IMG/VR virus record: IMGVR_UViG_3300009008_000004
Location: 18,004 to 82,003 of that record
DNA: 64,000 nt
Strand: one strand, 5' to 3'
Source of the DNA: a virus
Lineage: Duplodnaviria > Heunggongvirae > Uroviricota > Caudoviricetes
The first letter of the stretch is position 1; the number at the start of each line of letters is the position of its first letter. The notes under the pieces were generated by a model. That model did not search any database. It was given only the letters and a program-made list of their open reading frames with translations, and was not told where the DNA came from. This document shows, piece after piece, positions 14,685-59,814 of the stretch. The translations under genes were made by a program, and so were the position numbers.

Positions 14685-15025
14685 GCGATACGGAAAATAA
14701 GACCGCCCCCGACGATGAGGTGGAGGTCACAGAGCACGATATGGAGATGATCCTTGTCGGGAGCTCCCTTGCCATCTCTCTCGTTGAGATGCAATTGGAC
14801 ACCATGGCCAAGCATGGTATGCCCGACGTCATCCACGACTTGTTTTCCCAACTTACCCTGATACCCAAGGAAAGTATGTACACCCTCGCCAAGCACTGTG
14901 GTTACGGCTCCCACCTGGTTAACGATGCGCAGGCGATGTCCACCCAACTCAAGGACCTGATTATTGAGCTCAACAAAGCAATGAAGGAATGGATGGAGCT
15001 CCAGGACAAAGAGAACCTAACGTAA
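14681..15025 (+). CDS. hypothetical acidic protein
   Basis: 114-aa ORF. Confidence 0.45.
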   Translation: MSDTENKTAPDDEVEVTEHDMEMILVGSSLAISLVEMQLDTMAKHGMPDVIHDLFSQLTLIPKESMYTLAKHCGYGSHLVNDAQAMSTQLKDLIIELNKAMKEWMELQDKENLT

Positions 15026-17045: not shown

Positions 17046-17570
17046 ATGCCAAAAGAATACACGGCGCTCCTCCAGATACCGGAGCCTTTACACACATGCC
17101 CCAATTGTGGGGCCCACCCCTTCGAGAGCTTCATGCGCGGATCAGTCCAACGCGCAAAGAGGAGTTGGTTTACCCCCTGGAAGGAGAGACCTTACTGCTC
17201 GATTATCTGCGATATGTGCAAGGAAATAGTGGGGCATGAGTACCCCTTTCTGGGGGAGATAGAGCTAGAAAAGCCCTACCGATATAACAGGGATGTCATC
17301 GCTCCTAAGTACACCTGCGAGGGAGCGCAGCAGAACGTGCTGGCCAGCCTGCAGCAAATAGAGGAGCAGGTAGATGCGCTCGCGGAGTTTATTATGCCCA
17401 AAGAACCCAAAGTAACCGAGTTCCCGGAAAGTGAGGAGCTCGAACAATTTCTGCGAGGAGAAGAAGAGCCTCCCCCGCCGAAACCACCCAAGAAGAAGTC
17501 GAACGTGAAGAGAAGGACCCGTAAGTCCCGCCGGTGGGAACAGATCCTCAAGAAACCACAAGAGGACTAA
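17046..17570 (+). CDS. Zn-ribbon protein with Lys/Arg-rich C-terminus
   Basis: CPNCGAHP...CDMCKE; C-terminal PPPKPPKKKSNVKRRTRKSRR. Confidence 0.5.
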   Translation: MPKEYTALLQIPEPLHTCPNCGAHPFESFMRGSVQRAKRSWFTPWKERPYCSIICDMCKEIVGHEYPFLGEIELEKPYRYNRDVIAPKYTCEGAQQNVLASLQQIEEQVDALAEFIMPKEPKVTEFPESEELEQFLRGEEEPPPPKPPKKKSNVKRRTRKSRRWEQILKKPQED

Positions 17571-17585
17571 TCGCATCCGATACCG

Positions 17586-17593
17586 GGTATAAG
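17586..17593 (+). promoter_or_regulatory. GGTATAAG box
   Basis: 32 nt upstream of ATG 17618. Confidence 0.4.
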
Positions 17594-17617
17594 ACCTCCG
17601 TACGAAGGGAGTTACAT

Positions 17618-27765: not shown

Positions 27766-28266
27766 ATGGACTTCATACTTTCATTCATAAAGGGGATAAC
27801 ACTCAAACAATGGGGATGGGGGCTACTTATTGCATTAGCCTTCGTCGGATTCGCGTCCATCGTACTGAGCTTCCGGAGCTGCGGTAATGAAGCGCGCGTT
27901 ATCGTGGGGACTCTCGTTGACTCCCAGGTAAAGGGAGATAAGCTACTCGCCGACTCCGTACATAAGTTACTGGAGAGCCATAAGGCGGTCCTCGCAGAGC
28001 AGGCCAAGCTCGAGAAAGAGTTAGTCGGGCTCCGCCAGGCGTATGACGAAGAGCTCCGCTCGCTCGAGGCCAAGATAGCCAAGAAAGACCAGGCCATCAA
28101 AGAGGAGTTTGCGCAACGGCTCGCCGAGAGGAGCAAACAATTGAGGGACAACTATGAGAAAACACTTTCTGATCCAGCTGCTGCTAGGGATTCTTTTATC
28201 AATTCTCTGCATCTGTGGGACGACCTCTGGAGCCCTGGGGCAGGAGAAACCCCTGCTGGACCCTGA
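27766..28266 (+). CDS. membrane-anchored coiled-coil protein
   Basis: N-terminal TM (WGWGLLIALAFVGFASIVLSF) then helical region. Confidence 0.45.
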   Translation: MDFILSFIKGITLKQWGWGLLIALAFVGFASIVLSFRSCGNEARVIVGTLVDSQVKGDKLLADSVHKLLESHKAVLAEQAKLEKELVGLRQAYDEELRSLEAKIAKKDQAIKEEFAQRLAERSKQLRDNYEKTLSDPAAARDSFINSLHLWDDLWSPGAGETPAGP

Positions 28267-28690
28267 CGGGTTACGTTGGGTACCGAGAGAAAACTGCTTC
28301 TGCATCAACCACCAGCACCTGGCCAAGGCAAGCCATGCGCTGCAGTATGCCAAAGAGAAGCTGACACTGAAGGACGATGAGTTCAAGAAGAGGATTGATG
28401 CCCTCAATATGGGCTCCGAGCTAAAGCTGAAGCTCACCAAAGACCACTGTGACACACAGCTCAACCTTGTTAGGTCCAGTTACCAGAACCAAATGGACCT
28501 GCTCCTTAAGCAGAGCGACACCCTTGTTTCCGATATCACAAGCACCTACAGCGAGCGGTTAAGGGAGGTTTCTTCTCTCGCCGCACCCCAAAAACCATCA
28601 TGGTATCAACACCCCATGTTTTGGGGTATCATAGGGGCCGTAGGCGGTACAGCGCTGGGTATTAGTATTGGCGCTATTATCTGGAAATAA
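28154..28690 (+). CDS. secreted/lipoprotein-like protein with C-terminal TM
   Basis: signal-like MRKHFLIQLLLGILLSILCICG; C-terminal FWGIIGAVGGTALGISIGAIIW; overlaps previous ORF by 113 nt. Confidence 0.4.
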   Translation: MRKHFLIQLLLGILLSILCICGTTSGALGQEKPLLDPDGLRWVPRENCFCINHQHLAKASHALQYAKEKLTLKDDEFKKRIDALNMGSELKLKLTKDHCDTQLNLVRSSYQNQMDLLLKQSDTLVSDITSTYSERLREVSSLAAPQKPSWYQHPMFWGIIGAVGGTALGISIGAIIWK

Positions 28691-29408: not shown

Positions 29409-29887
29409 TGAAAATCGTATTTTTGGACATAGACGGGGTCCTGGTAAATAAGCAATACAGCGCCCTCCAGGCGAAGGACATGCGGAAATTTGACCCCGAC
29501 TGTGTAAAACAACTCAACAGGCTACTAGAGGCGGGAGACGCAAATGTGGTCGTGTCCAGCACCTGGCGTCTCGGATACACCAGCCTGCAAGACCTACAGC
29601 ACATGCTTTGGGACCAAGGTGTTGCCTGCGACGTCGTAGGGACTACGCCCCAGCTGGATGGTGTTCGCGGGGAAGAAATACAGGAGTGGCTCGATGTATC
29701 CGATTTGGATATTGAGTCCTTCGTTATCCTGGACGACGACAGCGATATGGCCCATCTGCTCCCCTTCCTCGTAAAAACTACCTTCGACCGCGGGCTGATT
29801 GCAGAGCACGTCGACCGCGCCCTCGAGGTACTACGGGGGGACCATGAGGAAACCAAGATCAAACAAACCCTGGAAGACGGAACCTGA
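29408..29887 (+). CDS. HAD-superfamily phosphatase-like protein
   Basis: MKIVFLDIDGVLVN (motif I DxDGxx) and FVILDDDSD (motif IV). Confidence 0.55.
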   Translation: MKIVFLDIDGVLVNKQYSALQAKDMRKFDPDCVKQLNRLLEAGDANVVVSSTWRLGYTSLQDLQHMLWDQGVACDVVGTTPQLDGVRGEEIQEWLDVSDLDIESFVILDDDSDMAHLLPFLVKTTFDRGLIAEHVDRALEVLRGDHEETKIKQTLEDGT

Positions 29888-30269
29888 TAATTGGGCAGGG
29901 GAATACCATGGATTTCCGGTAGCCATCACACGCAACAACCTGTTAGCGTTGTGTGGGTACGTCGGGGTTCCGCCCACCCACAAGCATTTTGGTAAGCACT
30001 ACAACGACCTCTACGAAGAGGACCCGAGTATTGAAGCGCATGGGGGAATTACCTGGTCGGGAGATCTTCCGAAAGAGATTCCCGGGGCCCCTACAGAGGG
30101 GTACTGGTGGTTCGGCTTCGACTGCGCACATACCTGGGATTTTGTCCCTGGGGTGCTGGAGTATGCTTCAAAAGGATTCTCCTCTGCCTACACAAGCTAT
30201 GCTGAATATCGTACGATAGACTTCGTGAAAACCGAACTCGAGTCTCTAGCAAAGCAGCTAAAGGAGTGA
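29844..30269 (+). CDS. hypothetical protein
   Basis: in-frame ATG (MRKPRSNKPW...); overlaps HAD gene end. Confidence 0.4.
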   Translation: MRKPRSNKPWKTEPDNWAGEYHGFPVAITRNNLLALCGYVGVPPTHKHFGKHYNDLYEEDPSIEAHGGITWSGDLPKEIPGAPTEGYWWFGFDCAHTWDFVPGVLEYASKGFSSAYTSYAEYRTIDFVKTELESLAKQLKE

Positions 30270-30272
30270 GTT

Positions 30273-31004
30273 ATGCAGTTCCTGGCAATGTCAGATATCC
30301 ATGTTGAGTTCCACCGAGATAAAGGGAAATCTTTCCTCCGCTCTCTGGATACTCCAGAGGAAGTTGACGCCATCTTGATCGCCGGCGACCTGGGTAACTA
30401 CCCGGTCCTGGCTAATGCTGTGGGATGGCTCTGTGAGAAGGGGCCGCGGATTATCCTGGTTGCCGGGAACCATGACTTCTATTTCTCCTCCTTCAAGAAG
30501 ACCCGCGAACTTTACAAGAGCCTCGAGGAGAAGCACGAGAACTTCACCTTCCTCGATAATTCCTCAACGGAAGTAGAGGGCGTCGCCATCCACGGAACAA
30601 CCCTTTGGTTCCCCGGCGGCCCACAAAACGAGCGATACTCCCGAGGGCTCAATGATTTCGATGTAATCCAGAACTTCCGCCAGCATGTGTACAAGGAGCA
30701 CAAGAAAGCAAAGAAGTTCTTGTGGGATGTGGTCAAGAAAGGGGATGTTGTCCTCACTCACCACGCCCCCAGTGCAAAATCCATCCGTCCGAGGTACGGA
30801 GCCAGTAACATGAACTGCTTCTACTTCGCGGCGATGGACCAACTCATCCACGAAGTACAACCCCTCTTCTGGATTCACGGCCACATGCATACGCACAATG
30901 GCTACTACATCCAGAAGACCGGGGTATACTGTAACGCCTTCGGCTACTTCGGCCGAGAAGACTGCAATCGCACTTTCCGGGAGCGAGAGATCTTCGCTGT
31001 CTAA
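30273..31004 (+). CDS. calcineurin-like metallophosphoesterase
   Basis: MSDIHVEF (motif I), IAGDLGN (II), VAGNHD (III), LTHHAP, IHGHMH (V). Confidence 0.7.
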   Translation: MQFLAMSDIHVEFHRDKGKSFLRSLDTPEEVDAILIAGDLGNYPVLANAVGWLCEKGPRIILVAGNHDFYFSSFKKTRELYKSLEEKHENFTFLDNSSTEVEGVAIHGTTLWFPGGPQNERYSRGLNDFDVIQNFRQHVYKEHKKAKKFLWDVVKKGDVVLTHHAPSAKSIRPRYGASNMNCFYFAAMDQLIHEVQPLFWIHGHMHTHNGYYIQKTGVYCNAFGYFGREDCNRTFREREIFAV

Positions 31005-31018
31005 CCGGACACCCGCCC

Positions 31019-31026
31019 GGGTATAA
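31019..31026 (+). promoter_or_regulatory. GGTATAAG box
   Basis: CCCGGGTATAAGAG 54 nt upstream of ATG 31080. Confidence 0.4.
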
Positions 31027-31079
31027 GAGACTCGTAACCGAACCTGCCGTATTTCTATTGAGCACACAGGAGGGAAAGT

Positions 31080-32942
31080 ATGCTCGCAATTCTTGTTTTG
31101 ATCACCATCGTAGTACTGTGCAGCATTGTCGTACTGTGGAAGTTCCGCTTCACCAAGAAGGAGTACACCGGGGAGACCACCATGGGTGGTTACGAGAAGT
31201 ACAAGACGGTGAAGCACCATCTGCCGCGCAAACTGCAGATCCTCGGAACTGCGCTTGCTATCATCCTATGGGCAGCAACATTTCTCGGAACGACTCTGTA
31301 CGTCGCACCGAAGACGGGGTACCTCGAGTACTCAAAGACATGGGGTGGTGGCTCCATGGGACCGGGGCAGATCGTTGCCTACGACGGAGAGAACGGCCCG
31401 CAAGCAGAAATTCTGCCGCCCGGACCCCACATCCTACCCCCGTGGCAATTCGAGGTCATCGAACGCTCCGACTTCGTAGTCCCTCCGGGCCAGATCGCAG
31501 AGCTGTCGACCAAGGACGGCGAACCACTATCCCCGGGTATGCGCTATGCACCTGAGTGGCAAGAGCTATCTGCCTTCCTCGATGCAGTAAACTTCCTCTC
31601 CTCTGGGAAAGGCTACAAAGGCGACCAAGTCACAATCCTCAAACCTGGTAACTGGAAGTTCAACCAGAACCTGTATGTCGCCGAACTCGCGAATGTTACC
31701 AACGTCCAGGTTGGGCACGTAGCAGTCGTCAAGGCAAACTACGGAGATGTCCCCACGCCGAAGACGATCAAGACCGCGAATATCATGGAAGTCGAGGTCC
31801 CGCTAACCAAGGAAGAGTTGGACATGGCCTACAAGGAGGCCATCGAGCTGGAGACCCAGCGGCAATTGGCTACAGGCATCCCCGCGGACCAGGTCAATGT
31901 AAAGCGGGAAGACGTAAAGGTCAAGAAGTCCAAAGTCATGCTCAAGGAAGTGGAGCAAGAAGTGGACGATCCCCTGGTAGACGTCGGCGAGCGTGGGATC
32001 TGGAGGAAGCCGCTGATCCCCGGAGAGTACTTCATGCACACGAAGGCGCATGAATTCAAGGATATTTTGACCATGAAGGTTCGCGTTGCCTACAGTCCTG
32101 AGGACAAGAAAGAACAGGACAACGTAGCGTTGGACCCAATCATCGTAAGGTCGAAAGATGGCTTTGAGTTCCCCGTCGACGTGCGCGTGGTCTACCATAT
32201 CGAACCCTCCGATGCACCTTGGGTGGTGGCAACCATCGGCGATGACGACTACGTGCTGGACAAAGTCATGACTCCTGCGGTTCGGTCAATCTTCCGAAAC
32301 CTCATGGGACGCTCGAAAGCACTCGACTTCGTAGCCGACCGCGAACTCAAGCAGCGGGAAGCAAAGTCACTGATTGCGAAAAAGTGCGCAGTGCACGGCG
32401 TCACTGTCGATGAAGTGCTGATCGGCCGGGTTGGTGATGATGCTACGCTGGGGGCGCTGATGAAAACGCAGAAGGACCGCGAGATTGCAGTCCAGCAGCA
32501 AGTGACCCTTGGGGTGCAGCAGAAGGCCGCTGAGCAGCAGAAAGAGCTCAGTAAGACCCAACAGGAGGCCGAGGAGGAAAAGTCCCTGGCAAAAGCCGCC
32601 TACGAGGTCCAGAGGGCACAACAGCGCAAGCTCCAGGCCCAAGAAGACGCGGATGCGGAGGCAATCAAGGTGAAGGTCGCAGCAGAGGCTGAAGCTGAGA
32701 AGATCCGAACGATCGCTCGCGCAGAAGCGGATGGCTACACAATGAAGGTCACCGCACTTGGGCGAGACACAGTCCGGACTATCGAGGCCCTGCGCATCGT
32801 TGGGGACGCCAATCTACGGATCACGCCAAACGTCATGGTATCTGGTGGAACCGAGGGAGTCGTCAGCGCACTCGCAGGAACACTCCTCAACAACTTCAAT
32901 GTCGCTGGGAAGGGCACAGGAATGCCCATACCCACCGAGTAG
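31080..32942 (+). CDS. SPFH/band-7 (flotillin-like) membrane protein
   Basis: N-terminal TM helices, SPFH-like core (FEFPVDVRVVYHIEP), long Ala/Glu/Gln-rich flotillin-type coiled coil. Confidence 0.65.
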   Translation: MLAILVLITIVVLCSIVVLWKFRFTKKEYTGETTMGGYEKYKTVKHHLPRKLQILGTALAIILWAATFLGTTLYVAPKTGYLEYSKTWGGGSMGPGQIVAYDGENGPQAEILPPGPHILPPWQFEVIERSDFVVPPGQIAELSTKDGEPLSPGMRYAPEWQELSAFLDAVNFLSSGKGYKGDQVTILKPGNWKFNQNLYVAELANVTNVQVGHVAVVKANYGDVPTPKTIKTANIMEVEVPLTKEELDMAYKEAIELETQRQLATGIPADQVNVKREDVKVKKSKVMLKEVEQEVDDPLVDVGERGIWRKPLIPGEYFMHTKAHEFKDILTMKVRVAYSPEDKKEQDNVALDPIIVRSKDGFEFPVDVRVVYHIEPSDAPWVVATIGDDDYVLDKVMTPAVRSIFRNLMGRSKALDFVADRELKQREAKSLIAKKCAVHGVTVDEVLIGRVGDDATLGALMKTQKDREIAVQQQVTLGVQQKAAEQQKELSKTQQEAEEEKSLAKAAYEVQRAQQRKLQAQEDADAEAIKVKVAAEAEAEKIRTIARAEADGYTMKVTALGRDTVRTIEALRIVGDANLRITPNVMVSGGTEGVVSALAGTLLNNFNVAGKGTGMPIPTE

Positions 32943-33969: not shown

Positions 33970-34054
33970 ATCCCCTGCAGTATCGGGAATAAGAGAAGTC
34001 CAATAGGCCCACTAACGGGCAAAGTTCTGTAAACACAGAGAGGTGAAGTACGTC

Positions 34055-34279
34055 ATGACAGACAAGAAGACTATCAAGGTTACCGTGGCGAAGCTGGGTG
34101 CTGACGATGTGATCGTCGAGGTCCCGGATGGATCGGAAGTTTGCAAGGTAGCGGGGCAGTCCGGCCTCGATACCCGTGGTTGCGTGTTCCAGCTCGACGG
34201 CGAGACTGTCGAAGGGACCGAATTGGTTGGTGAGGGCCAGATCCTCCAACTCGTCCCCCGCGTCGAGGGAGGGGAATAA
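34055..34279 (+). CDS. ubiquitin-like beta-grasp protein (ThiS/MoaD-like) with C-terminal GG-E
   Basis: 74 aa, KVTVAKLG...VEVPDGSEV...GQILQLVPRVEGGE: size, alternation and penultimate Gly-Gly typical of Ubl precursors. Confidence 0.6.
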   Translation: MTDKKTIKVTVAKLGADDVIVEVPDGSEVCKVAGQSGLDTRGCVFQLDGETVEGTELVGEGQILQLVPRVEGGE

Positions 34280-34303
34280 GAACGTGCGGGTGGGCTGCTC
34301 AAA

Positions 34304-34320
34304 ATATCTCGATTAGATAA
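34304..34320. promoter_or_regulatory. quasi-palindromic operator-like site ATATCTCGATTAGATAA
   Basis: reverse complement of the 11234-11250 site; just upstream of E2-like gene RBS. Confidence 0.45.
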
Positions 34321-34351
34321 TTGGGCAGCCTGCCCAACAAGGAGGAACCAG

Positions 34352-35818
34352 GTGGCATACCAGTACAAAACCAACTACAAAGAGCTGGATGAAGCTCTCA
34401 CGACAGAGGCGGAAGTACTTGGGGCGTATATCATCCCCAGATTCGTTGACGTAAACGGGGCAGCCGACGTACACCACAAGCAAGCAGGGATCCCAAAAGC
34501 ACCTGCGGTATTCCTTGCTATCCAGCAGTATGACGTAGGAAATCCCATCTCAGAGGCGCGATTGCGTGTGCGGGGCGAAGACCTCACACTCACGAAGCCC
34601 ATACGCCCAACAAAGACGCCGGGGGTACCGATCGTTGTTAACAACGGCAAAAAACATGGTACCATAACCATCGGCTCGGTCTACGAGAACACGGTCTACC
34701 TCAACTTCAACCTGCCGAACTTTATCAACGCCAAGCGCTACACCAGAACTGCGCGGGGGAAAACGGGCAACACCGATGGCAGCTTCTTACCCAAACTATT
34801 CGCCCAGCACCTCCGTCCAGCATTCCAACTCGCGGCCAAGTTCGACGAAGGCTACAGCTACGCCGACGAAAAGAGAGTCCACGTCCAGAATGTGCTAAAG
34901 ACTCAAAAGACGGTCAAGAAAGAGCTTGAGCGCAAAATCTCCGTCCAAAGGAGGTCTATCGCCAACCACATCCAGGCAATCGAACAAGCAACCTCTAGGC
35001 TGGGAGAGATGCAACAGACGCTTGCCGGCCTCGAGGCCGACCAGGTGAAGCTTGCGAAAAAGGGGGAGACTCGCTTCCGCATCTTCAACAGCTTGTGGGG
35101 TAATGGCATTCACGATCTACGGATCGAGCCCACGCACATCATATTCCTCACAGCCCCGATCTTCTCCGAAGGGCTACCTTTCGGGCGCTTCTGGGTAACT
35201 ATCCCGCGGGGCGCAGACCGTCAGTACTCCAATATCACGATCAAGGCAGAAAACAACACCTACAACATAGGCGGATACGTACACCCACACATCCACGAGA
35301 ATGGGAGTATTTGCTGGGGCACAGCCGGCACGGTTATTGCGCAATTCCGCGGGCGGGGACAAGAGATCGAATGTATCCCCATTATCCTGGAGTACCTCCG
35401 GACCTACCATCATGACCACCAGTACCGCGCCATTGAGTACTGGGACGAGAAATTCGGTAAAAAGGGGGATAAAAAGCGAACTGACCGTGGTTCTCGCTGG
35501 CGTGAGTGTTACAGTAAGGTTACAGATCCGTACGAGTGTGCAGGATGCTTTGCCCCGGAATGCCCTTACCGGGACGGTGCCGAAGATCGTTGCTACAGGC
35601 AGCGGAACAAGAAGCAGGAGTACATTCGGTGTATGCAGTGTAAGGCCTGCAATAACTGGAAACACGCCAAAGCTGCCTGCCGGAAAAACCATCAGCAGGA
35701 CAGGAAGGATTGCGTGGGCTGCCCAGTAACATCATGTACCTACGCCGAGCCTGAGAAAGTGGCAAAAGCCCGCAAACCCAGACGGAAAACGGCTAAAGGG
35801 AGGACTAAGGCCGCATGA
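34352..35818 (+). CDS. E2 (UBC)-like ubiquitin-conjugating domain protein with N-terminal extension and Cys-rich C-terminus
   Basis: GTG start 7 nt after AAGGAGG; GGYVHPHIHENGSICWGTAG matches E2 HPN-x-x-x-x-G-x-I-C active-site signature; C-terminal 100 aa has 14 Cys (Zn-binding-like). Confidence 0.6.
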   Translation: MAYQYKTNYKELDEALTTEAEVLGAYIIPRFVDVNGAADVHHKQAGIPKAPAVFLAIQQYDVGNPISEARLRVRGEDLTLTKPIRPTKTPGVPIVVNNGKKHGTITIGSVYENTVYLNFNLPNFINAKRYTRTARGKTGNTDGSFLPKLFAQHLRPAFQLAAKFDEGYSYADEKRVHVQNVLKTQKTVKKELERKISVQRRSIANHIQAIEQATSRLGEMQQTLAGLEADQVKLAKKGETRFRIFNSLWGNGIHDLRIEPTHIIFLTAPIFSEGLPFGRFWVTIPRGADRQYSNITIKAENNTYNIGGYVHPHIHENGSICWGTAGTVIAQFRGRGQEIECIPIILEYLRTYHHDHQYRAIEYWDEKFGKKGDKKRTDRGSRWRECYSKVTDPYECAGCFAPECPYRDGAEDRCYRQRNKKQEYIRCMQCKACNNWKHAKAACRKNHQQDRKDCVGCPVTSCTYAEPEKVAKARKPRRKTAKGRTKAA

Positions 35819-36753
35819 AAATCAAAGTAGAACCAACAATTTTCCTTCTGCCAGAAGTCATCACGAAGATCGACATCTGGTGTAAGAAGGCCAAAGGGGA
35901 GGTCTCTGGCCTCGGCCTCATCGACATCGATGAAGATGGGGACATCTTTGTAACTGATGTCTACCTACTTGAGCAAAAGTCATCCAGTGGTAATACGGAC
36001 CTCGACCAGGAGGCTGTTGGTAACCTGATGACCGAACTCAGAAAGGAAGGCATCTCAATGTCCAAGCTCCGCTTCTGGTGGCATTCACATGGGAATGGTG
36101 GAGTATTTTGGTCGGGAACCGATGACAAGACCATCGATATTCTCGGCAAAGGCGGCTTTATGGTCTCCATGGTCACCAACAAGAAGCGGGAGAAGAAGTT
36201 CCGGATCGGGATGCAGAAACCGCTGAAACTGGACCTGGATGACGTTGGGTGGAGCCTCGCCTACTTCCCAGACGAAGAGTTTGAGAAGGAGTGCGAAAAG
36301 GAATTCGATGAGAAGGTCAAGGAGGTCACGACGATCACTACCTTCAAGGGTTCCGGAAACTACGGGCACAACCGCTCCGGCCGGGGCCGCTTCTACCATA
36401 ATGGGCGGTGGCACGACTCCTGGCCCGGTGGCAATGGGGGTTCCCGGACCGATTCTCCAGGAGGTGGGCTTCATCAGCCCGTCCCTTTTCAGGGAGAGGA
36501 CACAAGCCCCGGGACAAACAACCCACTCGAAATGCTCCCGTCGTGGGGAGAAATCCCCGGGACCGACGCAAGAAGTAGAGTCAGCGATCTCGTTGGTCAA
36601 GAGATTGAAGAGGTCGATACTCTCTGGCTTATTCTCAACGAAGCGGACTACACGGTAGCCGGGCTTGACCAACTCCGTAAGGCTAACAAGATCGAAACTG
36701 CGGAGCACAACCAAGCACGCGCCCAACTGAAGGAGCTCGGACTCGATGACTGA
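35815..36753 (+). CDS. JAB/MPN (JAMM) metallopeptidase
   Basis: E...WWHSHGNGGVFWSGTD = HxHx7Sx2D JAMM motif; ATGA coupling to E2-like gene. Confidence 0.8.
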   Translation: MKIKVEPTIFLLPEVITKIDIWCKKAKGEVSGLGLIDIDEDGDIFVTDVYLLEQKSSSGNTDLDQEAVGNLMTELRKEGISMSKLRFWWHSHGNGGVFWSGTDDKTIDILGKGGFMVSMVTNKKREKKFRIGMQKPLKLDLDDVGWSLAYFPDEEFEKECEKEFDEKVKEVTTITTFKGSGNYGHNRSGRGRFYHNGRWHDSWPGGNGGSRTDSPGGGLHQPVPFQGEDTSPGTNNPLEMLPSWGEIPGTDARSRVSDLVGQEIEEVDTLWLILNEADYTVAGLDQLRKANKIETAEHNQARAQLKELGLDD

Positions 36754-37411
36754 TATCGACAGGAATGCTATGTATCATCGGCAGCTCGATATCCTCGATC
36801 CGGAGAAGGCTGCCAAACTCAACGTCACTATTATCGGGGCCGGCGCTATCGGCTCCTTCACCGCACTCTCCCTGGCAAAGATCGGCGTAACCAACATCAC
36901 GGTCTACGACGATGACACGGTAGAGCTGCACAACATCCCGAACCAGTGGTACAGACTATCGGATGTCGGGAAGAAGAAGGTCATTGCCCTCCGCGAGATT
37001 ATCGAGCAGTTTACCGGGGTCAAGATTACCGCGATCCCGGAAAAGTTCGATAAGCAGAAGGCAAAAGGATTCGTCATCAGCGGAGTCGACTCCATGGATG
37101 CTCGCATTGGCATCTGGCAGAACCTCAAGATGCAGTTTCCACAGAGGTATCTGGATGCCCGCATGGGAGCGGAGGTGGGGGAGATACACATGGTGAACCC
37201 GGCCGACTTCGACAACGCCGAACAGTACGAGGAGAAGCACCTATTTCCCTCAACTGAGGCTGCTCCAGGAGCATGTACTGCCCGCAGCACAATGTACTGC
37301 GCCAGCGGGCTCGCTGCGATCATTGCGGCAAAGGTCAGCAACTTCATCAACCAGAGGCCCGACTCGGACCTGATCGTGGACTTCCGAAATATGAAGGTGT
37401 TGCCTGTTTGA
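36746..37411 (+). CDS. E1-like ThiF/MoeB-family adenylyltransferase
   Basis: VTIIGAGAIGS nucleotide-binding loop, YDDDTVELHNIPNQ E1 signature, 8-nt overlap with JAB gene. Confidence 0.8.
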   Translation: MTDIDRNAMYHRQLDILDPEKAAKLNVTIIGAGAIGSFTALSLAKIGVTNITVYDDDTVELHNIPNQWYRLSDVGKKKVIALREIIEQFTGVKITAIPEKFDKQKAKGFVISGVDSMDARIGIWQNLKMQFPQRYLDARMGAEVGEIHMVNPADFDNAEQYEEKHLFPSTEAAPGACTARSTMYCASGLAAIIAAKVSNFINQRPDSDLIVDFRNMKVLPV

Positions 37412-37465: not shown

Positions 37466-38950
37466 ATGGGAGAAAAACGAACCATCGCTGAAGAGGTGAA
37501 GGATCAATTCACGATCGACACCCTTCAAAAACGCACGGCCGAGCTACTCAATGAGTTGCATACGGCCAATGGACCAACGCATAAGAAAGCCCGGATGAAG
37601 CTCCGCTTCCTGACGTTGACGTCTGCCAAGACGTGCGAGCAGGTCAAAGTGGGGCCCACGGAGACCGTGAGAGTCGTACTCGACGCCGCGGATAAGTACC
37701 TCCAGAAGGACGGATTGTCCAAGGAGGAGCGCAACATGGTCCACAGCTTCAAATACGGACTGCGCCTATTCTCTGCTTTGCAGACTACAGGACGCTTAGA
37801 CTCCGACGGGCCTCGACTCGTCAAAGTGCGCAAAACCAAGACAACAACGAAGGCCGTAAGGCGTACGGCACCACAACCCACGGCAGCGGTTGTAACCCCC
37901 AAACCGAAACCGAAAGAAGCCCCCGGCCGCTATCCGGGCATCACTCGGGACGGTACCGTGCTTTCAGGAACCTCCTGGGTAGCCTTCGAATGGGCACGCG
38001 GAGTATTCGTTGCCCTCGATCCACGAGACCGCAGTCGTGTCGACATCTTTGCACAGCACAAGATGGCAGGGCTAAACTCCACAGGCGCACCGGTAATCTA
38101 CCTGCCCTGGTTGACAGGAGACACGAACCCCACGAGTACGATCACCACCCCGGTCTTACTTTCCGCGTTCCTCTGCGGGACAGGTGAGGAAATATCCCAT
38201 CTGAATAAAGACCCATACGACTTCCGCCGTACCAACCTGCGTATCAGCGGAACCCCTATCGACTTCTCCGACAACAACCTGTGCACGCAGTTCGCCCAGG
38301 GGCTGGTAACGGCGACACACTCCGTTGCTGCGCTGGATAAGATGATCACCGAGATCCGGGACACCACAAAACCCGTGACACTCGAGAAGGAGAAGAAAGA
38401 ATGGCTTGCTCTGGTAGAGCTGGCCGAAACTGAGCGAGACGCTACCAAGACACAGGTAGCAGACCTGGAACTCAAGCTCAAAGCTGCGGAGACTGCGGTC
38501 ACCAAAGCAAAGACCGCACTGAAAAGTGCCCGAGCCCGCCAGGATGCCCAGGGTGAGCTGCAGAATACTCTGCGGGAACTGCGATCATCCCTCAACGCCA
38601 AACGACAGGAGTGTGTAGCCCTCAAAGAGGAGCTTACCGAGATACGGGAAACAAGCAACAAGTTCGAGAAAGTCTCCAGTATGGAAGACGAACTCAGCGA
38701 AGCGCACACCTCAGTAGCAAACCTCGAGGTCCAGGTGGAACGCCTGACTAAGGCCAACAAGGAACTCGGGTCGCGGCTACGCAAGCGGGTGGGCGGGGAG
38801 AACGGTTCTATCCAAAAGGTAGCCGTGGTCCCGCCAGCGGTCGTTGACGCTGTCGACGTCATCCGTGATCTCCTCAACGGATCCTTGAAAGACGAGTACA
38901 AACTCCGCTTCATCGGGGATACCATCGCCAACCTGCAACTGCCGGAGTAA
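37466..38950 (+). CDS. hypothetical protein with long C-terminal coiled coil
   Basis: 494-aa ORF; RBS GGGAGAAG; heptad-rich 300-450 region. Confidence 0.55.
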   Translation: MGEKRTIAEEVKDQFTIDTLQKRTAELLNELHTANGPTHKKARMKLRFLTLTSAKTCEQVKVGPTETVRVVLDAADKYLQKDGLSKEERNMVHSFKYGLRLFSALQTTGRLDSDGPRLVKVRKTKTTTKAVRRTAPQPTAAVVTPKPKPKEAPGRYPGITRDGTVLSGTSWVAFEWARGVFVALDPRDRSRVDIFAQHKMAGLNSTGAPVIYLPWLTGDTNPTSTITTPVLLSAFLCGTGEEISHLNKDPYDFRRTNLRISGTPIDFSDNNLCTQFAQGLVTATHSVAALDKMITEIRDTTKPVTLEKEKKEWLALVELAETERDATKTQVADLELKLKAAETAVTKAKTALKSARARQDAQGELQNTLRELRSSLNAKRQECVALKEELTEIRETSNKFEKVSSMEDELSEAHTSVANLEVQVERLTKANKELGSRLRKRVGGENGSIQKVAVVPPAVVDAVDVIRDLLNGSLKDEYKLRFIGDTIANLQLPE

Positions 38951-38954
38951 CATC

Positions 38955-40295
38955 ATGAAACCGACCCGTCTTTGGTCGACATGGAGTGTCTCGAAATTGG
39001 TGCGGGTCCTGGACTGCCCACGATCCTTTGACCTTGTCTACATCAGACAGACGAAGGGTCCCGAAAGCCCGTACAAGGTTTTCGGCTCGGCGGTCCACAC
39101 CATGCTCGAGAGATTCTTCAAAGTGAACTACCAAACAGCTGAGTCCTTCGCCAAGGCGGGCGTCGGTTTCTGGATGGGGGTCGTAGACGGAAGTCACGGC
39201 CCCTCTTCTTTTAGTGCCGAGGTAAGCAAACCAGTCATTATTGACTTCAGTAACGTGAAGGCACCAATGATGTTCCTGGGCATGATGAAGAAGATACTGC
39301 GGATCTTCTACAACGATAATTTGGAGTATAGAGATGGTCCAAAACCTACGCCAGAGGTGGAAAAAAATTTCACGCTTGATCTGGAAGGCAAAAAGATTCG
39401 AGGTATCCTGGATCGACTCCAGCCCGACCATCCGGATCTTGCCTGGAACCGGCGAGACGGGGAGCTCGGCACACGGGTGGGCCACCATATCATCGACTAC
39501 AAGCCATACGTACTCGACCAGTTCGGGCTCCACCTTGACCTGCAACTCACCATGTACAATCTGTGGTACATCCAGCAGTACGGCAGAGACCCCCTCTCAC
39601 TTGGAATCTACAATTACAAAGAGCCCATCGACAGAGTTGTATGCACACCTCCCCGCACCCAGAAGGATTTCGCCGACCTCGCCCTCAAGTTTCAGGAGGC
39701 CTCAGAGTATGTCATTGGCGTGCTCACCGGCGACATGTCGAGGCCCTCCGCAATAACCGGGTTCCGGCATTTCATCCAAGATGACCTGATGACCGGGGTA
39801 ATGACGCCCAAGAAGGTAATGGGTGGTCCCGGGTGTAAGTTCTGTGAGTTCAAGGAGAATTGCCTGAAGATTCACAAAGGGGAGCTACCGACCACGCGGG
39901 AATACGTCAAGAAGAAGTACGAACTTCCAAGCTCCCCACTCCTCCCCTTCGCGGTAAAACATAAGGGAGCGGACCGACCGCGTACCCGCGCGAATCTGCG
40001 GAGAGTGCTTGCCCGCAGAAGGGTAGAGCCTCTGCCCACCAAACCGGAGGAGGTCTATCTCCGCCTACAACTGAAGGTGGATAGGACATCCGACAAAACC
40101 GACCCAACCAAGTATGGGCGCTGCCCCCACTGCGGGTTCGCCCTCCAGAAGAACGGGAAGTGTAACAACTGCCTCTCCTGGTATAGCAAGGATGGCAACT
40201 TCCTCCCCGAGAAATCATGGAAGTCCGTCTCCGACAGGATCAAAAGGAGGAAAGAAAAGGATGAGCAGGATGTGGGACCAGGTAATAGCGGATGA
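38955..40295 (+). CDS. PD-(D/E)xK nuclease, Cas4/RecB-like with Fe-S cysteines and C-terminal Zn ribbon
   Basis: N-terminal Cys (LDCPRSF), ...DRLQPD...IIDYKPY (D-x-K), GGPGCKFCEFKENC three-Cys cluster: Cas4-family arrangement; C-terminal CPHCG...CNNC. Confidence 0.6.
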   Translation: MKPTRLWSTWSVSKLVRVLDCPRSFDLVYIRQTKGPESPYKVFGSAVHTMLERFFKVNYQTAESFAKAGVGFWMGVVDGSHGPSSFSAEVSKPVIIDFSNVKAPMMFLGMMKKILRIFYNDNLEYRDGPKPTPEVEKNFTLDLEGKKIRGILDRLQPDHPDLAWNRRDGELGTRVGHHIIDYKPYVLDQFGLHLDLQLTMYNLWYIQQYGRDPLSLGIYNYKEPIDRVVCTPPRTQKDFADLALKFQEASEYVIGVLTGDMSRPSAITGFRHFIQDDLMTGVMTPKKVMGGPGCKFCEFKENCLKIHKGELPTTREYVKKKYELPSSPLLPFAVKHKGADRPRTRANLRRVLARRRVEPLPTKPEEVYLRLQLKVDRTSDKTDPTKYGRCPHCGFALQKNGKCNNCLSWYSKDGNFLPEKSWKSVSDRIKRRKEKDEQDVGPGNSG

Positions 40296-40926
40296 GTATA
40301 ACCTCCGCCAACAAGTAGCAGACCACACGAACAACACCCTTAACTCCGTCTGTAAGGAATGCGATTCCCCCGTCTGCTGTATGCAGATGTTTGAGGTTAC
40401 CCCGTGGGATGCGCTCCTTATCATCAGGACACATCCGCAAGCGGTAACTCGGCTTATACCCAAGCTGGAAGAGCAGGCTGAACTGGAGAAGAAGTACGCC
40501 GGCGAGATGGAGGAGTACATCCATAACGAACGGCATCCCTGCGCCTTTCTCACTGCCGACGGCAAATGCGAAATATACGCCATGCGCCCCATCATTTGCG
40601 CTATGATGCATATTCGCGAAGGAGAGAAGCGCTGCGGAGACATGGACGCCAAAGAGAAGCATGCAGTTGGGCTCCTCCCGGAGCTCACTGTACGATACCT
40701 CTCCACAACACACAAAGTGTGGGAAGGTGTAGACGGACAACAGGGAATGCGGCACTTCCTACTGGAGAACGGGATGGAGGATATACCTTTTGGATTTATC
40801 CCGGGCCTTGCCACAGCCATACTCGCTGTCGGCGAAGGCAAGAAACCTCCTATGTTCTCCGAGCGGGACATGCTCATGACCGAACTTCGTATGCGGCAAA
40901 AGGGGTACATGAAAGACGCCCCATGA
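40261..40926 (+). CDS. YkgJ-family Zn/Fe-chelating domain protein (second copy)
   Basis: CKECDSPVCC...CAFLTADGKCEIYAMRPIIC. Confidence 0.55.
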   Translation: MSRMWDQVIADEYNLRQQVADHTNNTLNSVCKECDSPVCCMQMFEVTPWDALLIIRTHPQAVTRLIPKLEEQAELEKKYAGEMEEYIHNERHPCAFLTADGKCEIYAMRPIICAMMHIREGEKRCGDMDAKEKHAVGLLPELTVRYLSTTHKVWEGVDGQQGMRHFLLENGMEDIPFGFIPGLATAILAVGEGKKPPMFSERDMLMTELRMRQKGYMKDAP

Positions 40927-40928: not shown

Positions 40929-40936
40929 GGTATAAG
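40929..40936 (+). promoter_or_regulatory. GGTATAAG box
   Basis: in 82-bp intergenic region before 41009. Confidence 0.35.
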
Positions 40937-41008
40937 GACGGCAGTAGCTGAAAGGCCGCTGCCGTCCAAGTCCTATAACCCTAACCAGCGCAAGCCGGGA
41001 GCGCATCG

Positions 41009-41653
41009 ATGACAACTATCTCTACACAAGTGATCAACTGGAACCTGATGGCGGGAAGCGTCGATATGGAGGAGAACAGATTGTTGTTCGCCAAAATCCG
41101 GAAAGACGTCTTCATTGCCATCCCTGAGAGTAAGGAAGCTCGTTGCTGGGCACCAATGCTAATCCTAAACCCGAAGAGTCCCATTGTCCGTGGGGGATTA
41201 GCAAAAAAGTACACCGCGGACATCCTTGGAATAGCGAGGGAGCATGTTCAAGGAGAGATTTTACGGCAGCTGATCAGAGCGACTGCTGATGAGAAAAGGA
41301 ATGGGCCGATGGACCGCCTGTCGGTTGTCGAAGCCATGCTCCCTTTTGAGGCCCGGCTGGAATATACAGCGGGAGACACCCCTGACATCCTCAGGCAATT
41401 CCTGGTACCTGCGTGGACAATTGAGCTCCTCGACTACCAGCGCCTGCGTATCGGATGGGTGGACGTAAAGGATGTTCTCCATTGCGTAATGCCCAAGAGC
41501 CTGCGTATCCTGCCAGATAAGCCCTACGACGAAGAGTCTTGGAGGCTGCTTACTGCCCACAATGTCCCGGACCAGCTCGTTGAACTGCTTGAGCACAATG
41601 GAATTGCAATCAGACAAAAGAGACCACGAAAACGTAACAAGAGGAGCCGGTAA
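41009..41653 (+). CDS. hypothetical protein
   Basis: 214-aa ORF. Confidence 0.5.
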   Translation: MTTISTQVINWNLMAGSVDMEENRLLFAKIRKDVFIAIPESKEARCWAPMLILNPKSPIVRGGLAKKYTADILGIAREHVQGEILRQLIRATADEKRNGPMDRLSVVEAMLPFEARLEYTAGDTPDILRQFLVPAWTIELLDYQRLRIGWVDVKDVLHCVMPKSLRILPDKPYDEESWRLLTAHNVPDQLVELLEHNGIAIRQKRPRKRNKRSR

Positions 41654-42543
41654 TGCCAATAGTCATATGCGAAGGAGTAAAGATTCGTATTGTCGGCCAC
41701 CCCTCAAAAAGTAAGTGGGCAGCCGCAACTAACACATACTTTGATGCAGAGACCGGGGAGGAGTTTGACCCGGAGAGCCTGCCCCCGGAGGGACGTGGGC
41801 ACAAGTACGTAATACGTAAGCATATAGCCGACGTACGAGGCTATTACACAATCACCAACGATTTACGGTACTGGGATGGGGAGACCGCCAAAGTGCTGCA
41901 GGTATGCGGGGCAGCCCCACCCAATATCGCTGCGCCCCTAATAGCGGCTGGGCGCAACCTCGTGGAAGCTGCGTGCGGGCCCGGAGAGTTCGATTGTAAC
42001 AAAGTCTACTTAGAGCCCGAGTACCTTGACCTCTTCGAGCAAAAGGCACAAGAGCGGGGATGGTCCGTGGACCACATTGCATGGTGCCCAAAAAGGCACG
42101 CGACACTCGAGCAAACAGCAAAGCTACTCTATGCGGGCCAAGTTGACCCTGAGAAAAGCGGGGACCGCGAAGTGCTCCAGACTGCCGTAGAATCTGCAGA
42201 GCAGCTGCTGGAGAATCCCACCGACCCTGCCTTTATCGCTAACCCCGAAAGGTATACAGTAATCGAAACGCACCTGCACAACCTCAAGGATGCGTTGGGT
42301 TTAGAGATTACCCCCAAGGCACGGCTGGAACTGACGTATGATTTACTGCGGTCCGCAACCTCCTACAAGGATTCCATCCAACTCCAAAATAATCACGTTG
42401 TGATAAATCTTCCGATGGGCCGTGTGAAGATTGGTTTAGAGGAGTGCGTTTACACCTCAGATGCTGGCACACAGACCCTTCATGGGACCGCGAAGAAGAA
42501 ATCGCGGTTGAGCAAAATCAAGAAAAATGGAGGGGACCCTTAG
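41653..42543 (+). CDS. hypothetical protein
   Basis: 296-aa ORF, TAATG junction. Confidence 0.5.
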   Translation: MPIVICEGVKIRIVGHPSKSKWAAATNTYFDAETGEEFDPESLPPEGRGHKYVIRKHIADVRGYYTITNDLRYWDGETAKVLQVCGAAPPNIAAPLIAAGRNLVEAACGPGEFDCNKVYLEPEYLDLFEQKAQERGWSVDHIAWCPKRHATLEQTAKLLYAGQVDPEKSGDREVLQTAVESAEQLLENPTDPAFIANPERYTVIETHLHNLKDALGLEITPKARLELTYDLLRSATSYKDSIQLQNNHVVINLPMGRVKIGLEECVYTSDAGTQTLHGTAKKKSRLSKIKKNGGDP

Positions 42544-44031: not shown

Positions 44032-45639
44032 ATGTCCAAGCTAGAAACCCTGATCCGGGCTGCGTACCCGGTGATCTACGTTGAGACCCCCGAAGAGGAG
44101 CGGTTGTTCCATGAACTTTCACGGATCACCACCGAAACGGGGCTGGATTTATTCACTTGGGATATTTCCGCTGGCTTCCGCCAGTATAAGGACGACGAGT
44201 TCAAGGACATCGATCCTGAAGCGGTAGAGCCACGCGAGGCTATCCCGCAGTATTTCATCAACAAAGATGACGTGAATGGGATTCTGGTACTCCCCGACAT
44301 CCACCGCCTGTTCCATGATGCCGCCTGCCTACGCTTGCTGCGCAACGCGCTCCAGCTGCGGCACCAGGGTGGCATCAAGATCATCTTGATGTGCTCCCCT
44401 ATCATTGACCTTCCCCTGGAGCTCCGCCGGCAGGTAGCTACTGTCGACTTCCCCCTCCCCTCCCGGGAGGAAATCAAGGAATTCCTCGAGGAGCAGCGCA
44501 ACGACGTCCCCAAGACCCTCTTCCCTGTGAAGAAGGAGATGGCGGAGGTGGTTGATAGCTGCCGTGGGCTGACGATGATGGAGATTGAGAATGTTCTGGC
44601 CAACTGCCTGGTCGAGGATTCTCCTCTGAAACCCAGCCGGGTTATCGGGGAGAAGAAAGAGATTCTCCGTGGGGCCAAGTCCCTGGAGTACATCGAATCT
44701 CCCTTGGAACTGAACAAGGATGTCGGGGGTCTCGAGAACGTGATTGCCTGGCTCGAGCTTCGCAAGCGTGCCTTCTCTGAGGATGCTGTGAAGTTCGGGA
44801 TTCCTGCGCCCAAAGGCTTGCTCCTGGTGGGTTTGCCTGGAACAGGGAAAAGCTTGGTCGCCAAAGCAGTTGGTGGTTCTTGGAAGTTCCCTCTGATCCG
44901 CTTCAATATGGGCGCTGCCTTCTCGAAGTGGCAGGGGGAATCCGAGGCGGAGATCCGGAATGCCTGGAACACCGCAGAGGCCTGCGCACCATGCCTCTTG
45001 GTAGTGGATGAAATTGATAAAGCGACCGGCGGTCTGGGCGGCGACTCAGACAATGGGACCGGGAACCGAATTCTTGGAGACCTGCTGACGAAGATGCAGG
45101 AGAACACCAAGGGCGTGGTCGTTATTGCTACCTGTAATGACGTACAGGCGATGCACCCAGCATTGCTTCGTAAAGGCCGCTTTGACGAGATTATCTTCGT
45201 GGACTTGCCCGGCCCCAAGGCCATCGAGCAGATCCTCGATATCCACTTGACGGCAAAGAAGCAGCCAACGTTGGATTCGTTCACCAAGAAAGAACGGAAA
45301 AGCATCGTCGAGCACATGCAGGGCATGACCGGCGCGGAGATTGAGCAGGCAGTTGTAGATGCCATGTACCTGGCATTTGCTGCTGAGCGGGCCCTCCTTC
45401 CTGAGGACCTCGTAGCTGCCGCTACTAACACCCGACCGTATTGCGTCCTGAAAGAGGAGGAAGTCAAATGGATGCGGAAGTGGGCAGAAAACAGGGCGGT
45501 GCCAGCATCCGCCGAAGTCTTGGACTTGACGAAAGCCCTGGACTTTCGCAAGCGCTTGGGCCAAGAACTCCCAGCGGATTCACCAATGTCTACGGTAAAG
45601 AAGCTGCGGCTAAAACGTCCCTCGCGCTCTGGCTCGTAG
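44032..45639 (+). CDS. AAA+ ATPase (classical AAA clade) with N-terminal domain
   Basis: LLLVGLPGTGKSLVAKAV Walker A, CLLVVDEIDKA Walker B, ATCNDVQAMHPALLRKGRFDEII sensor/Arg-finger region. Confidence 0.8.
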   Translation: MSKLETLIRAAYPVIYVETPEEERLFHELSRITTETGLDLFTWDISAGFRQYKDDEFKDIDPEAVEPREAIPQYFINKDDVNGILVLPDIHRLFHDAACLRLLRNALQLRHQGGIKIILMCSPIIDLPLELRRQVATVDFPLPSREEIKEFLEEQRNDVPKTLFPVKKEMAEVVDSCRGLTMMEIENVLANCLVEDSPLKPSRVIGEKKEILRGAKSLEYIESPLELNKDVGGLENVIAWLELRKRAFSEDAVKFGIPAPKGLLLVGLPGTGKSLVAKAVGGSWKFPLIRFNMGAAFSKWQGESEAEIRNAWNTAEACAPCLLVVDEIDKATGGLGGDSDNGTGNRILGDLLTKMQENTKGVVVIATCNDVQAMHPALLRKGRFDEIIFVDLPGPKAIEQILDIHLTAKKQPTLDSFTKKERKSIVEHMQGMTGAEIEQAVVDAMYLAFAAERALLPEDLVAAATNTRPYCVLKEEEVKWMRKWAENRAVPASAEVLDLTKALDFRKRLGQELPADSPMSTVKKLRLKRPSRSGS

Positions 45640-59379: not shown

Positions 59380-59814
59380 TTACTTCTTCCCCTTAGAACT
59401 CTTCTTCTTAGTAGCCTTCTTCTTGGGCTTCGGTGCTTCCTTCTCCGGTTCTGGTTCCGGTTCCGGCTCGGGTTCCGGCTCGGGTTCCGGCTCGGGAATA
59501 GGCTCTGGTTCGGGAGTAGGCTCTGGTTCAGGCTCAGGAGTAGGTTCGGGCTGCCCAACAACCTCGGGACCGTCCATATCCTCTGCCATTACCAACTCAA
59601 AGAGGCCGGCGTCAATGGCCTTATCAAGAAGCGCGGCGTACCGGACAAAGATATCGCCGGTAATAGTCACCTGCCCTCCAGGAGCAAGGCGGTAAGGACC
59701 AAACTTGATAATCCCAGACTCAAACAGCTTCCGGAGTTCCGGGTGCTTCGCTTTTGCCATGGCCCAGGCCTTTGCCAAGGTGCGTGGCGCGCGGATGGTA
59801 TATTGGGTTGCCAT
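59380..59814 (-). CDS. hypothetical protein with (PE)n linker and Lys-rich C-terminus
   Basis: [37 protein letters not shown] then [14 protein letters not shown]. Confidence 0.5.
59444..59550. repeat. tandem hexanucleotide-type repeat (GGTTCCGGCTCG-like) encoding PE repeats
   Basis: ggttccggctcgggttccggctcgggttccggctcggg... visible in sequence. Confidence 0.6.

Follow-up and report, generated by a model that had tools for sequence, protein, structure and literature searches.

Genes that follow a phage ubiquitin-like cassette, among them a RecB/Cas4-family exonuclease gene with a zinc-ribbon tail, are probably its neighbours and not its components

One of the questions raised by phage-encoded ubiquitin-like (Ubl) cassettes concerns the genes that lie directly behind them: do these belong to the machinery, or do they simply share its neighbourhood? 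The case considered here is a 64,000-nucleotide stretch of DNA (hereafter the window; positions 18,004 to 82,003 of the IMG/VR virus record IMGVR_UViG_3300009008_000004, Caudoviricetes), in which four genes for a Ubl, an E2-like protein, a JAB protein and a ThiF-type E1 are followed on the same strand by genes for a coiled-coil protein, a nuclease and a YkgJ-type cysteine-cluster protein (Table 1). A preliminary description, made from the sequence alone, had placed these three genes at the positions and in the orientation found here, with short gaps or an overlap between them, and had suggested that the linkage of the nuclease gene to the Ubl module and to the coiled-coil gene might point to an extended functional unit. 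The comparisons reported below lead to another answer, which we consider likely to be the right one: the three genes are neighbours of the cassette and not components of it, the nuclease being an ordinary phage recombination or replication exonuclease, and the coiled-coil and YkgJ-type proteins being accessory.

The main evidence is the way in which these genes sort among related loci, which were compared over about 20 kb for each large relative and over up to 10 kb on each side of the nuclease gene on longer contigs. In one lineage (L001-L004/L100/L102) the whole block is present in identical order, an observation that says little because the entire region is syntenic. A second group (L097-L099), reached through a coiled-coil homologue (P0008), consists of three independent assemblies that agree with one another and whose E1 and downstream AAA ATPase share 73% and 74% identity with those of the window; here Ubl, E2, JAB, E1 and coiled-coil genes are followed by a 450-nt gap, the YkgJ-type gene and a homologue of the window gene at 41009-41653, and no trace of the nuclease was found at the locus by tblastn (E<=0.01). 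In a third group (L021/L022/L024/L025), known from IMG/VR contigs of up to ~181 kb (178-181 kb for L021 and L022) and with an E1 of 38-39% identity, the order is E2-JAB-E1, an unrelated open reading frame (ORF) of 273 amino acids (aa), a homologue of the window gene at 41653-42543, a ParB gene, the AAA gene (E 1e-94), the RecA-like gene and Fer4_12, and the coiled-coil, nuclease, YkgJ-type and 41009-41653 genes are all missing from the loci. Two scans over all IMG/VR contigs, which were pattern-based and whose outcome depends on the patterns used, returned no nuclease relative; within those limits, this suggests that the genomes of the third group do not carry the nuclease.

The reverse arrangement, a nuclease that has no cassette beside it, is also found. 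Relatives of the nuclease occur at 38-43% identity in L005-L008, L009/L101 and L010/L011 and at 27-29% identity in L103 and L104, and in the DNA flanking these loci, which make up five independent cases (with 10 kb on each side for L005), no match to Ubl, E2, JAB, E1, coiled-coil, YkgJ-type or AAA proteins was obtained with hidden Markov models (HMMs), phmmer or tblastn. The L005 contig has just two other genes in common with the window, and its nuclease gene lies about 1 kb after a homologue of the window gene at 28154-28690, two genes that in the window are separated by about 10 kb including the cassette.

Relatives of E1 were found in 88 deposited phage genomes and in more than 540 IMG/VR stretches, and a wider survey took in 84 viral loci that carry them. 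A JAB gene is recognisable beside E1 in 54 of these, and an iterated Cas4-like profile detects a nuclease in six, each time 3-9 kb from E1; HMMs of the coiled-coil protein, the YkgJ-type protein and the product of the 41009-41653 gene matched none of the 84. Nuclease and cassette thus vary independently, since the nuclease occurs without the cassette (L005, L009, L010, L103 and L104) and the cassette without the nuclease (L097-L099, L021-L025 and 78 of the 84 E1 loci). The preliminary description had proposed to ask of related phages whether the nuclease is always linked to the Ubl genes, and the answer is that it is not. For the nuclease, then, the proposed extended unit does not hold; what stands of it is that the coiled-coil and YkgJ-type genes follow the cassette in three lineages, to which the 84 E1 loci add no further case.

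Table 1. Coordinates of the principal features (positions in the window unless a locus is named)
Feature	Coordinates	Strand	Details
Ubl	34043-34279	+	78 aa; C-terminus ...VEGGE
E2-like protein	34352-35818	+	488 aa; HPH...C motif
JAB protein	35815-36753	+	
E1, ThiF-type	36746-37411	+	Pfam 4.5e-21
Cassette span	window 34043-37411; L013 (FpV4) 3607-7618; L015 (crAss001) 4238-8648		
Coiled-coil protein	37466-38950	+	494 aa; ORF
Weak HNH_3-like motif LCGTGEEISHLNKDPYDFRRTNLRISG	38171-38251	+	in middle domain of coiled-coil protein; Pfam HNH_3 16.2 bits (cut-off 24.8)
RecB/Cas4-family PD-(D/E)XK nuclease	38955-40295	+	446 aa; PDDEXK_1, phrog_69
Nuclease CxxCxxxxxC triad (C294, C297, C303)	39828-39869	+	from alignment
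Nuclease C-terminal zinc ribbon KYGRCPHCGFALQKNGKCNNCLSWY	40110-40184	+	C390/C393...C403/C406 (CPHCG...CNNC); basic stretches on either side
YkgJ-type cysteine-cluster protein	40261-40926	+	221 aa; Pfam CxxCxxCC (PF03692)
Perfect 9-bp inverted repeat GGACGGCAG...CTGCCGTCC	40936-40967	+	14-nt loop; within the 82 nt between the YkgJ-type gene and the next one; no T-run
gp75/gp49-family genes (examples)	L013 7621-8709; L015 8648-9460; L014 7669-8436		47 further loci

What kind of enzyme is the nuclease? Its profile matches, motifs and cysteine pattern place it among the phage RecB/Cas4-like exonucleases (PF12705). It matches Pfam PDDEXK_1 over residues 9-303 with 53.1 bits (cut-off 22; E=5.6e-14) and phrog_69, 'exonuclease', at 3.1e-16, and in an alignment the catalytic residues D153 (GILDRLQ; GxxDRxQ), D181-Y-K183 (IIDYKPY) and Q197..Y201 are invariant in five homologues. 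The same holds for C21 (LDCPR; 39015-39017) and for the triad C294/C297/C303 (CKFCEFKENC), which together make up a four-cysteine set of the Cas4/AddB/Dna2 type, the predicted ligands of an Fe-S-type cluster. The shorter relatives L103 and L104 (~320 aa) retain the full set of nuclease motifs as well as the triad, which in them reads CSLCDYEKIC. The Cas4/RecB-like arrangement that the preliminary description had seen in the 446-aa protein (an N-terminal Cys, D...IIDYKPY and CxxCxxxxxC) is therefore genuine, and its fallback suggestion, that the protein might simply be a phage recombination exonuclease, appears to have been right, the role being assigned from the RecB/Cas4-family profile and motifs. 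Two ORFs on the minus strand, at 38910-39545 and 40055-40243, run antisense to the nuclease gene and were set aside, as they match relatives only by mirroring the conserved sense frame.

Structure prediction points in the same direction, with the qualification that AlphaFold modelled the nuclease poorly (pLDDT 52); the models of both the nuclease and the coiled-coil protein are of low confidence because their alignments hold only five and three sequences. The best matches of a Foldseek search of the PDB with this model were AdnAB, Dna2, the Cas4-family ACE1, RecE, AddAB and the SSO0001 Cas4, with E-values (4e-3 or above; TM ~0.3) that are weak because the model is poor. Among viral structures (BFVD) the matches were phage RecB-family and Cas4-family exonucleases, with a best E of 6e-6. 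A sequence profile search of the PDB with the nuclease alignment gave chance matches only, such as Grainyhead.

Seen against known enzymes, the nuclease has the PD-(D/E)XK core, the D...(D/E)xK...QxxxY motifs and the one N-terminal and three C-terminal cysteines of the phage-encoded RecB/Cas4-family exonucleases (PF12705; PHROG 69), of which a Thermus virus P23-45 RecB-family exonuclease and a Streptomyces phage 'Cas4 family exonuclease' are examples in BFVD. It shares the C...CxxCxxxxxC set and the RecB motifs with Cas4 (SSO0001) and with the Fe-S domains of AddB, AdnB and Dna2, and Fe-S binding is predicted. Unlike AddB, AdnB and Dna2, however, it has no helicase domain, and unlike the situation of Cas4, no cas1 or cas2 gene or CRISPR-like array accompanies it: no Cas family turned up when the ORFs of the window were scanned with Pfam, and no CRISPR-like tandem repeat array is present in the window, so that the nuclease is not a CRISPR-associated Cas4.

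The window nuclease departs from the phage exonucleases at its C-terminus, where about 130 further aa provide a linker, the conserved CxxC...CxxC ribbon and a tail of basic character. Since the matched phage RecB/Cas4-family exonucleases span 250-340 aa, the last ~130 aa are best seen as an addition. The extra zinc ribbon had already been noted in the preliminary description, and its four cysteines prove to be conserved without exception in the five homologues that share 38% identity or more; it is missing from the ~320-aa relatives L103 and L104, and on the basis of this alignment it is an addition specific to this subfamily. Together with its basic flanks, the ribbon would probably act as an extra DNA-binding or partner-docking module. 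The subfamily is small, as a word-indexed search of 5.8 billion proteins returned only five clusters, all from metagenomes. Scans of IMG/VR contigs with single proteins (nuclease and coiled-coil protein) and with alignments (nuclease and E2) returned nothing, and among 50,697 deposited phage genomes DNA and protein searches gave no match to the nuclease, the E2-like or the YkgJ-type protein (tblastn included for the nuclease and the YkgJ-type protein) and no DNA match to the window.

Taken together, the protein would be a catalytically competent PD-(D/E)XK enzyme with metal-dependent exonucleolytic activity on DNA ends, as in RecB-family and Cas4-like nucleases, and by analogy with their phage-encoded members it most likely resects ends and thereby feeds recombination-dependent replication or repair. 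Between the window and the L001 lineage the nuclease shares 73% identity, close to E1 (76%) and above JAB (49%), the YkgJ-type protein (48%), E2 (42%) and the coiled-coil protein (~36-40%). These values indicate that the nuclease is under strong purifying selection while the coiled-coil protein (~36-43% across its homologues) and the YkgJ-type protein (41-48%) drift. They also bear on a rival explanation, according to which the nuclease serves offence or counter-defence, for example by degrading host DNA or by interfering with host CRISPR or other immunity, and not recombination. Such a function would suit a gene with the patchy presence among close relatives that is common for accessory genes, and a small metagenome-only subfamily of five clusters whose extra zinc ribbon could direct the enzyme to a specific substrate. 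Yet 73% identity is unlike that of typical arms-race genes, the core and motifs equal those of phage RecB-family exonucleases that are widespread and are annotated as parts of DNA-metabolism modules, and none of the Pfam, PHROGs and NCBIfam models of known defence or anti-defence proteins was matched (the search did not extend to PADLOC); we regard this explanation as improbable.

The preliminary description had recognised the coiled-coil protein from its sequence, and the AlphaFold model agrees. In it, aa 9-108 form a helical domain at the N-terminus, aa 111-164 a disordered linker rich in Pro, Lys and Thr, aa 165-265 an optional alpha/beta middle domain and aa 306-442 a long single helix of 137 residues, after which comes a short conserved C-terminal segment; the mean pLDDT is 60, rising to about 80 in the N-terminal domain and the long helix. 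Homologues form only three clusters among 1.84 billion representative proteins, a word-indexed search returned the query alone, and no Pfam, PHROG or NCBIfam family matched at or above its cut-off. The three aligned members share 36-43% identity, with conservation over their first 125 and final 30 residues, and the middle domain of ~150 aa is kept in two of them and missing from the third, a 369-aa homologue (P0009). By these comparisons the protein belongs to a lineage-specific orphan family and is a fast-evolving accessory protein.

Two more specific identities were considered for it and discarded. Models of SMC and Rad50 match residues 280-440 by coiled-coil segments only, with scores that never exceed 28.9 bits where the cut-offs are 300-1087, and there is no ATPase domain in either the Pfam scan or the AlphaFold model, so that the protein does not qualify as an SMC, Rad50 or SbcC protein. 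The middle domain contains a weak HNH_3-like motif that reaches E=0.008 when the domain is searched in isolation; its His is not conserved in the homologue P0008 (...ACENGD...), a comparison with the crAss001 HNH protein gp67 was not significant, and the motif is probably degenerate. Given the sub-cut-off score, the unconserved His and the loss of the domain in P0009, the evidence is too weak to call the domain a remnant of an HNH/AP2 homing endonuclease.

Several considerations weigh against the view that the three genes are mere neighbours. As about 20 kb was seen of each large relative, the nuclease could lie elsewhere in genomes of the L097 type. The fold evidence for the nuclease is supportive only, given the quality of its model, and its 5'-3' resection role is inferred from family membership. 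The window holds no clear single-strand annealing partner, the most that was found being a RecA-like match at 45.4-46.4 kb, itself weak (E 9e-4; no PHROG match). Finally, the coiled-coil and YkgJ-type genes have been found only in cassette-bearing lineages, and the coiled-coil gene is invariably the next one after E1.

This last point is the core of a second rival, in which the coiled-coil protein, possibly with the YkgJ-type protein, is a lineage-specific adaptor, an E3-like specificity factor or a dedicated target of the Ubl-E2-JAB-E1 machinery, the nuclease gene having been inserted later between their genes. The coiled-coil gene is confined to three cassette-bearing lineages, and in each it lies directly 3' of E1 with a gap of about 55 nt; its rapid evolution would suit a host- or target-interacting surface; and other cassette lineages fill the same slot with a lineage-specific gene of their own: phages of the L022 type have the 273-aa ORF there, and 50 of 82 loci have a member of a single conserved family of 230-360 aa that includes crAss001 gp75 and FpV4 gp49. 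That family may be a fifth component of its own type of cassette. Homology between the coiled-coil protein and these slot-mates was nevertheless rejected (hhalign probability <1%), the three groups being mutually unrelated, and profile scans found no E3-like, Ubl-binding or catalytic domain in it. The cassette is complete without the coiled-coil gene in all other lineages examined, and the co-occurrence itself has almost no statistical weight because it comes from three closely related genomes in which the whole region is syntenic. An extended unit of this kind is, in our judgement, unlikely. A more elaborate version seems slightly less likely again: the coiled-coil protein would be a slot-specific partner in a 'fifth slot', acting as a lineage-specific specificity factor or substrate of phage Ubl conjugation, and its long coiled coil would recruit the YkgJ-type protein and, in genomes that have it, the zinc-ribbon nuclease as clients.

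The reading of the three genes as neighbours is helped by the wider family of phage cassettes. The phages that carry E1 relatives include crAss-like Bacteroides phages (crAss001 gp76-79), FpV4-like Flavobacterium phages and Xanthomonas and Erwinia jumbo phages, and the gene, annotated in deposited genomes as 'thiamine biosynthesis protein', usually sits in a replication module beside primase and uracil-DNA glycosylase (UDG) genes. In FpV4 the N-terminus of gp53 is a Ubl-like domain with an internal ...SGG, followed by a long tail. In crAss001 and FpV4 a homologous cassette lies in such a replication module (primase, UDG), and a RecE-like DUF3799 exonuclease gene (gp70 and gp47, respectively) is found ~1.6-2.8 kb downstream. 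These exonucleases resemble the window nuclease in belonging to the PD-(D/E)XK superfamily and in being encoded on the same strand, within a replication module, a few genes after a Ubl?-E2?-JAB-E1 cassette in which the Ubl and E2 assignments are tentative. They differ from it in coming from another Pfam family that by definition has no Fe-S cysteines or zinc ribbon and in not being adjacent to the cassette, and phmmer detected no homology between them and the window nuclease. Because the nuclease in crAss001 and FpV4 is of a different family and lies at a different distance, 'same module' fits the data better than 'same machine'.

A comparison with bacteria leads to the same view. The Bil-type operons BilABCD encode a Ubl, an E2, a JAB deubiquitinase and an E1 (10.1101/2023.09.04.556158; 10.1101/2023.09.26.559546), and the upstream cassette of the window holds the same four activities in one operon. 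Unlike the Bil operons, the cassette is phage-encoded, and its three downstream genes, the nuclease gene most clearly, do not appear to co-vary with it. A term search did not find 'nuclease' in the two papers cited, and the literature searched yielded no description of nuclease-linked or phage-encoded Bil-like cassettes; the nuclease does not belong to the conserved parts of Bil-like Ubl operons.

The third gene encodes a divergent metal-binding member of PF03692, to judge from its profile and motifs. It matches the Pfam CxxCxxCC model with 26.8 bits (cut-off 23; E=8.5e-6), in agreement with the YkgJ-type assignment of the preliminary description, and a word-indexed search found the query alone. 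Its homologues in L002 and L097 share the motifs CKECDSPVCC and HPCAFL..GKCEIY..RPIIC with it. Like YkgJ/UPF0153 proteins it has the CxxC...CC arrangement and a downstream C..FL..G.C.IY..RP..C; unlike canonical YkgJ its first motif is CxxCxxxxCC and not CxxCxxCC. No DUF3109 or NCBIfam match was obtained, nor any PHROG match, and no function can be transferred to it. The ORF is readable from 40114, and a start at 40261 or 40270 is backed by the homologues and by an AGGAGG Shine-Dalgarno sequence. A second PF03692 paralogue is encoded in the phage at 25223-26146 (+; 307 aa), 14 kb upstream, with a canonical CSACGQCC. Among YkgJ/PF03692 relatives, the flagellin lysine-N-methylase FliB has an assigned function.

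A third rival starts from the proximity of this gene to that of the nuclease and sees the two as a DNA-modification or repair pair, the YkgJ-type protein being a metal-dependent modifying enzyme by analogy with DpdM and coupled to an end-processing nuclease. The genes overlap by 35 nt and the second has a strong Shine-Dalgarno sequence, which suggests translational coupling; a YkgJ-related phage protein, DpdM (DUF3109), has been assigned to DNA modification as a preQ1-DNA methyltransferase and is described as a YkgJ homologue (10.1101/2023.04.13.536721); and a Fer4_12 radical-SAM-like gene lies 5.6 kb downstream. Each gene of the pair is, however, retained without the other, the YkgJ-type gene in L097 and the nuclease gene in L005, L009, L010, L103 and L104. 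The window protein, as noted, does not match DUF3109, and the radical-SAM-like gene is nearer to NrdG-type activases than to QueE (1.7e-23 versus 1.1e-7). Pfam scans of the window ORFs found no TGT/DpdA, QueC, QueD or FolE family, and a 7-deazaguanine pathway involving the YkgJ-type protein was rejected on that account. A modification pair is very improbable.

This returns us to the preferred reading, that of neighbours within a densely packed region, and to the layout of that region. The source phage is large and uncultured, and the proteins of the window are also encoded on a 182.7-kb metagenomic contig. The gap between the E1 and coiled-coil genes is 54 nt and that between the coiled-coil and nuclease genes 4 nt, and a Shine-Dalgarno sequence precedes the start of each of the three downstream genes. 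A terminator scan between 33 and 48 kb found no terminator-like site on the plus strand, so that the three genes lie in one long co-directional block in which adjacency tells little. The tight spacing would reflect phage operon packing and translational coupling and not an obligatory partnership, and the three genes would be part of a co-directional block of about 14 kb made up of early, DNA-metabolism and accessory genes of a phage of ~183 kb, the coiled-coil protein contributing a fast-evolving, lineage-restricted accessory function and the YkgJ-type protein a divergent metal-binding one. The perfect inverted repeat after the YkgJ-type gene is the sole intergenic hairpin of its kind between 33 and 48 kb and was not called by the terminator scan; it may form a hairpin in the RNA or mark where a unit ends.

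Beyond the YkgJ-type gene the block continues with a ParB-like gene, a Cdc48/PAN-like AAA ATPase gene, the weak RecA-like gene and the NrdG-like Fer4_12 gene. The AAA+ ATPase (44032-45639, +) is Cdc48/PAN/FtsH-like (NCBIfam CDC48 7.6e-39; phrog_8638 1e-109), lies 6.6 kb after the cassette and is retained in all cassette-bearing relatives of the window lineage. A tie between it and the Ubl cassette was considered and rejected, as only 4 of the 84 E1 loci carry a gene of this AAA family; such a link is also unlikely because the family is encoded by phages that the E1 search did not return, Corndog-like mycobacteriophages and PaMx31-like Pseudomonas phages among them. In the L001 lineage the AAA gene (L001 14927-17590) encodes 887 aa, with an insertion of ~330 aa by tblastn and a faint Intein_splicing match. 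The window encodes a second AAA-type ATPase of 615 aa at 17534-19381 (+; phrog_30773, 4.9e-34), and the PHROGs that it matches overlap those matched by the AAA protein at 44 kb.

The surroundings of the cassette are plastic as well. In L097 an extra gene of 426 aa (13448-14728; Pfam SSO2105_N) stands between the homologues of the window genes 41009-41653 and 41653-42543, a further indel that marks the block as plastic. Directly 5' of the cassette region, at 29799-32942 (+), the window encodes a HAD_SAK_2/phrog_2164 protein, a metallophosphoesterase (phrog_1649, 1e-44) and a 620-aa Band_7 (SPFH) protein; tblastn matched none of these genes at the L001 or L097 loci, so that the neighbourhood on this side is variable too. 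Farther off, an ORF of 1400 aa on the minus strand (50321-54523), whose last ~200 aa match the tail-sheath family phrog_279 (1.1e-12), is unusually long for a sheath protein. Two tandem repeats, neither of them CRISPR-like, were seen elsewhere in the window: a 24-nt unit present twice at 11911-11959, within a gene at 11.9 kb, and a GS-rich coding repeat of 6, 12 and 24 nt at 59443-59529.

For the biology of phage Ubl systems the result is in large part a negative one: the nuclease should not be treated as an effector or as the regulated output of the phage Ubl-E2-JAB-E1 cassette. The unit relevant to cassette function would consist of the four cassette genes, possibly together with the variable gene directly after E1. 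The phage RecB/Cas4-like exonucleases, for their part, gain a small subfamily with a zinc-ribbon tail.

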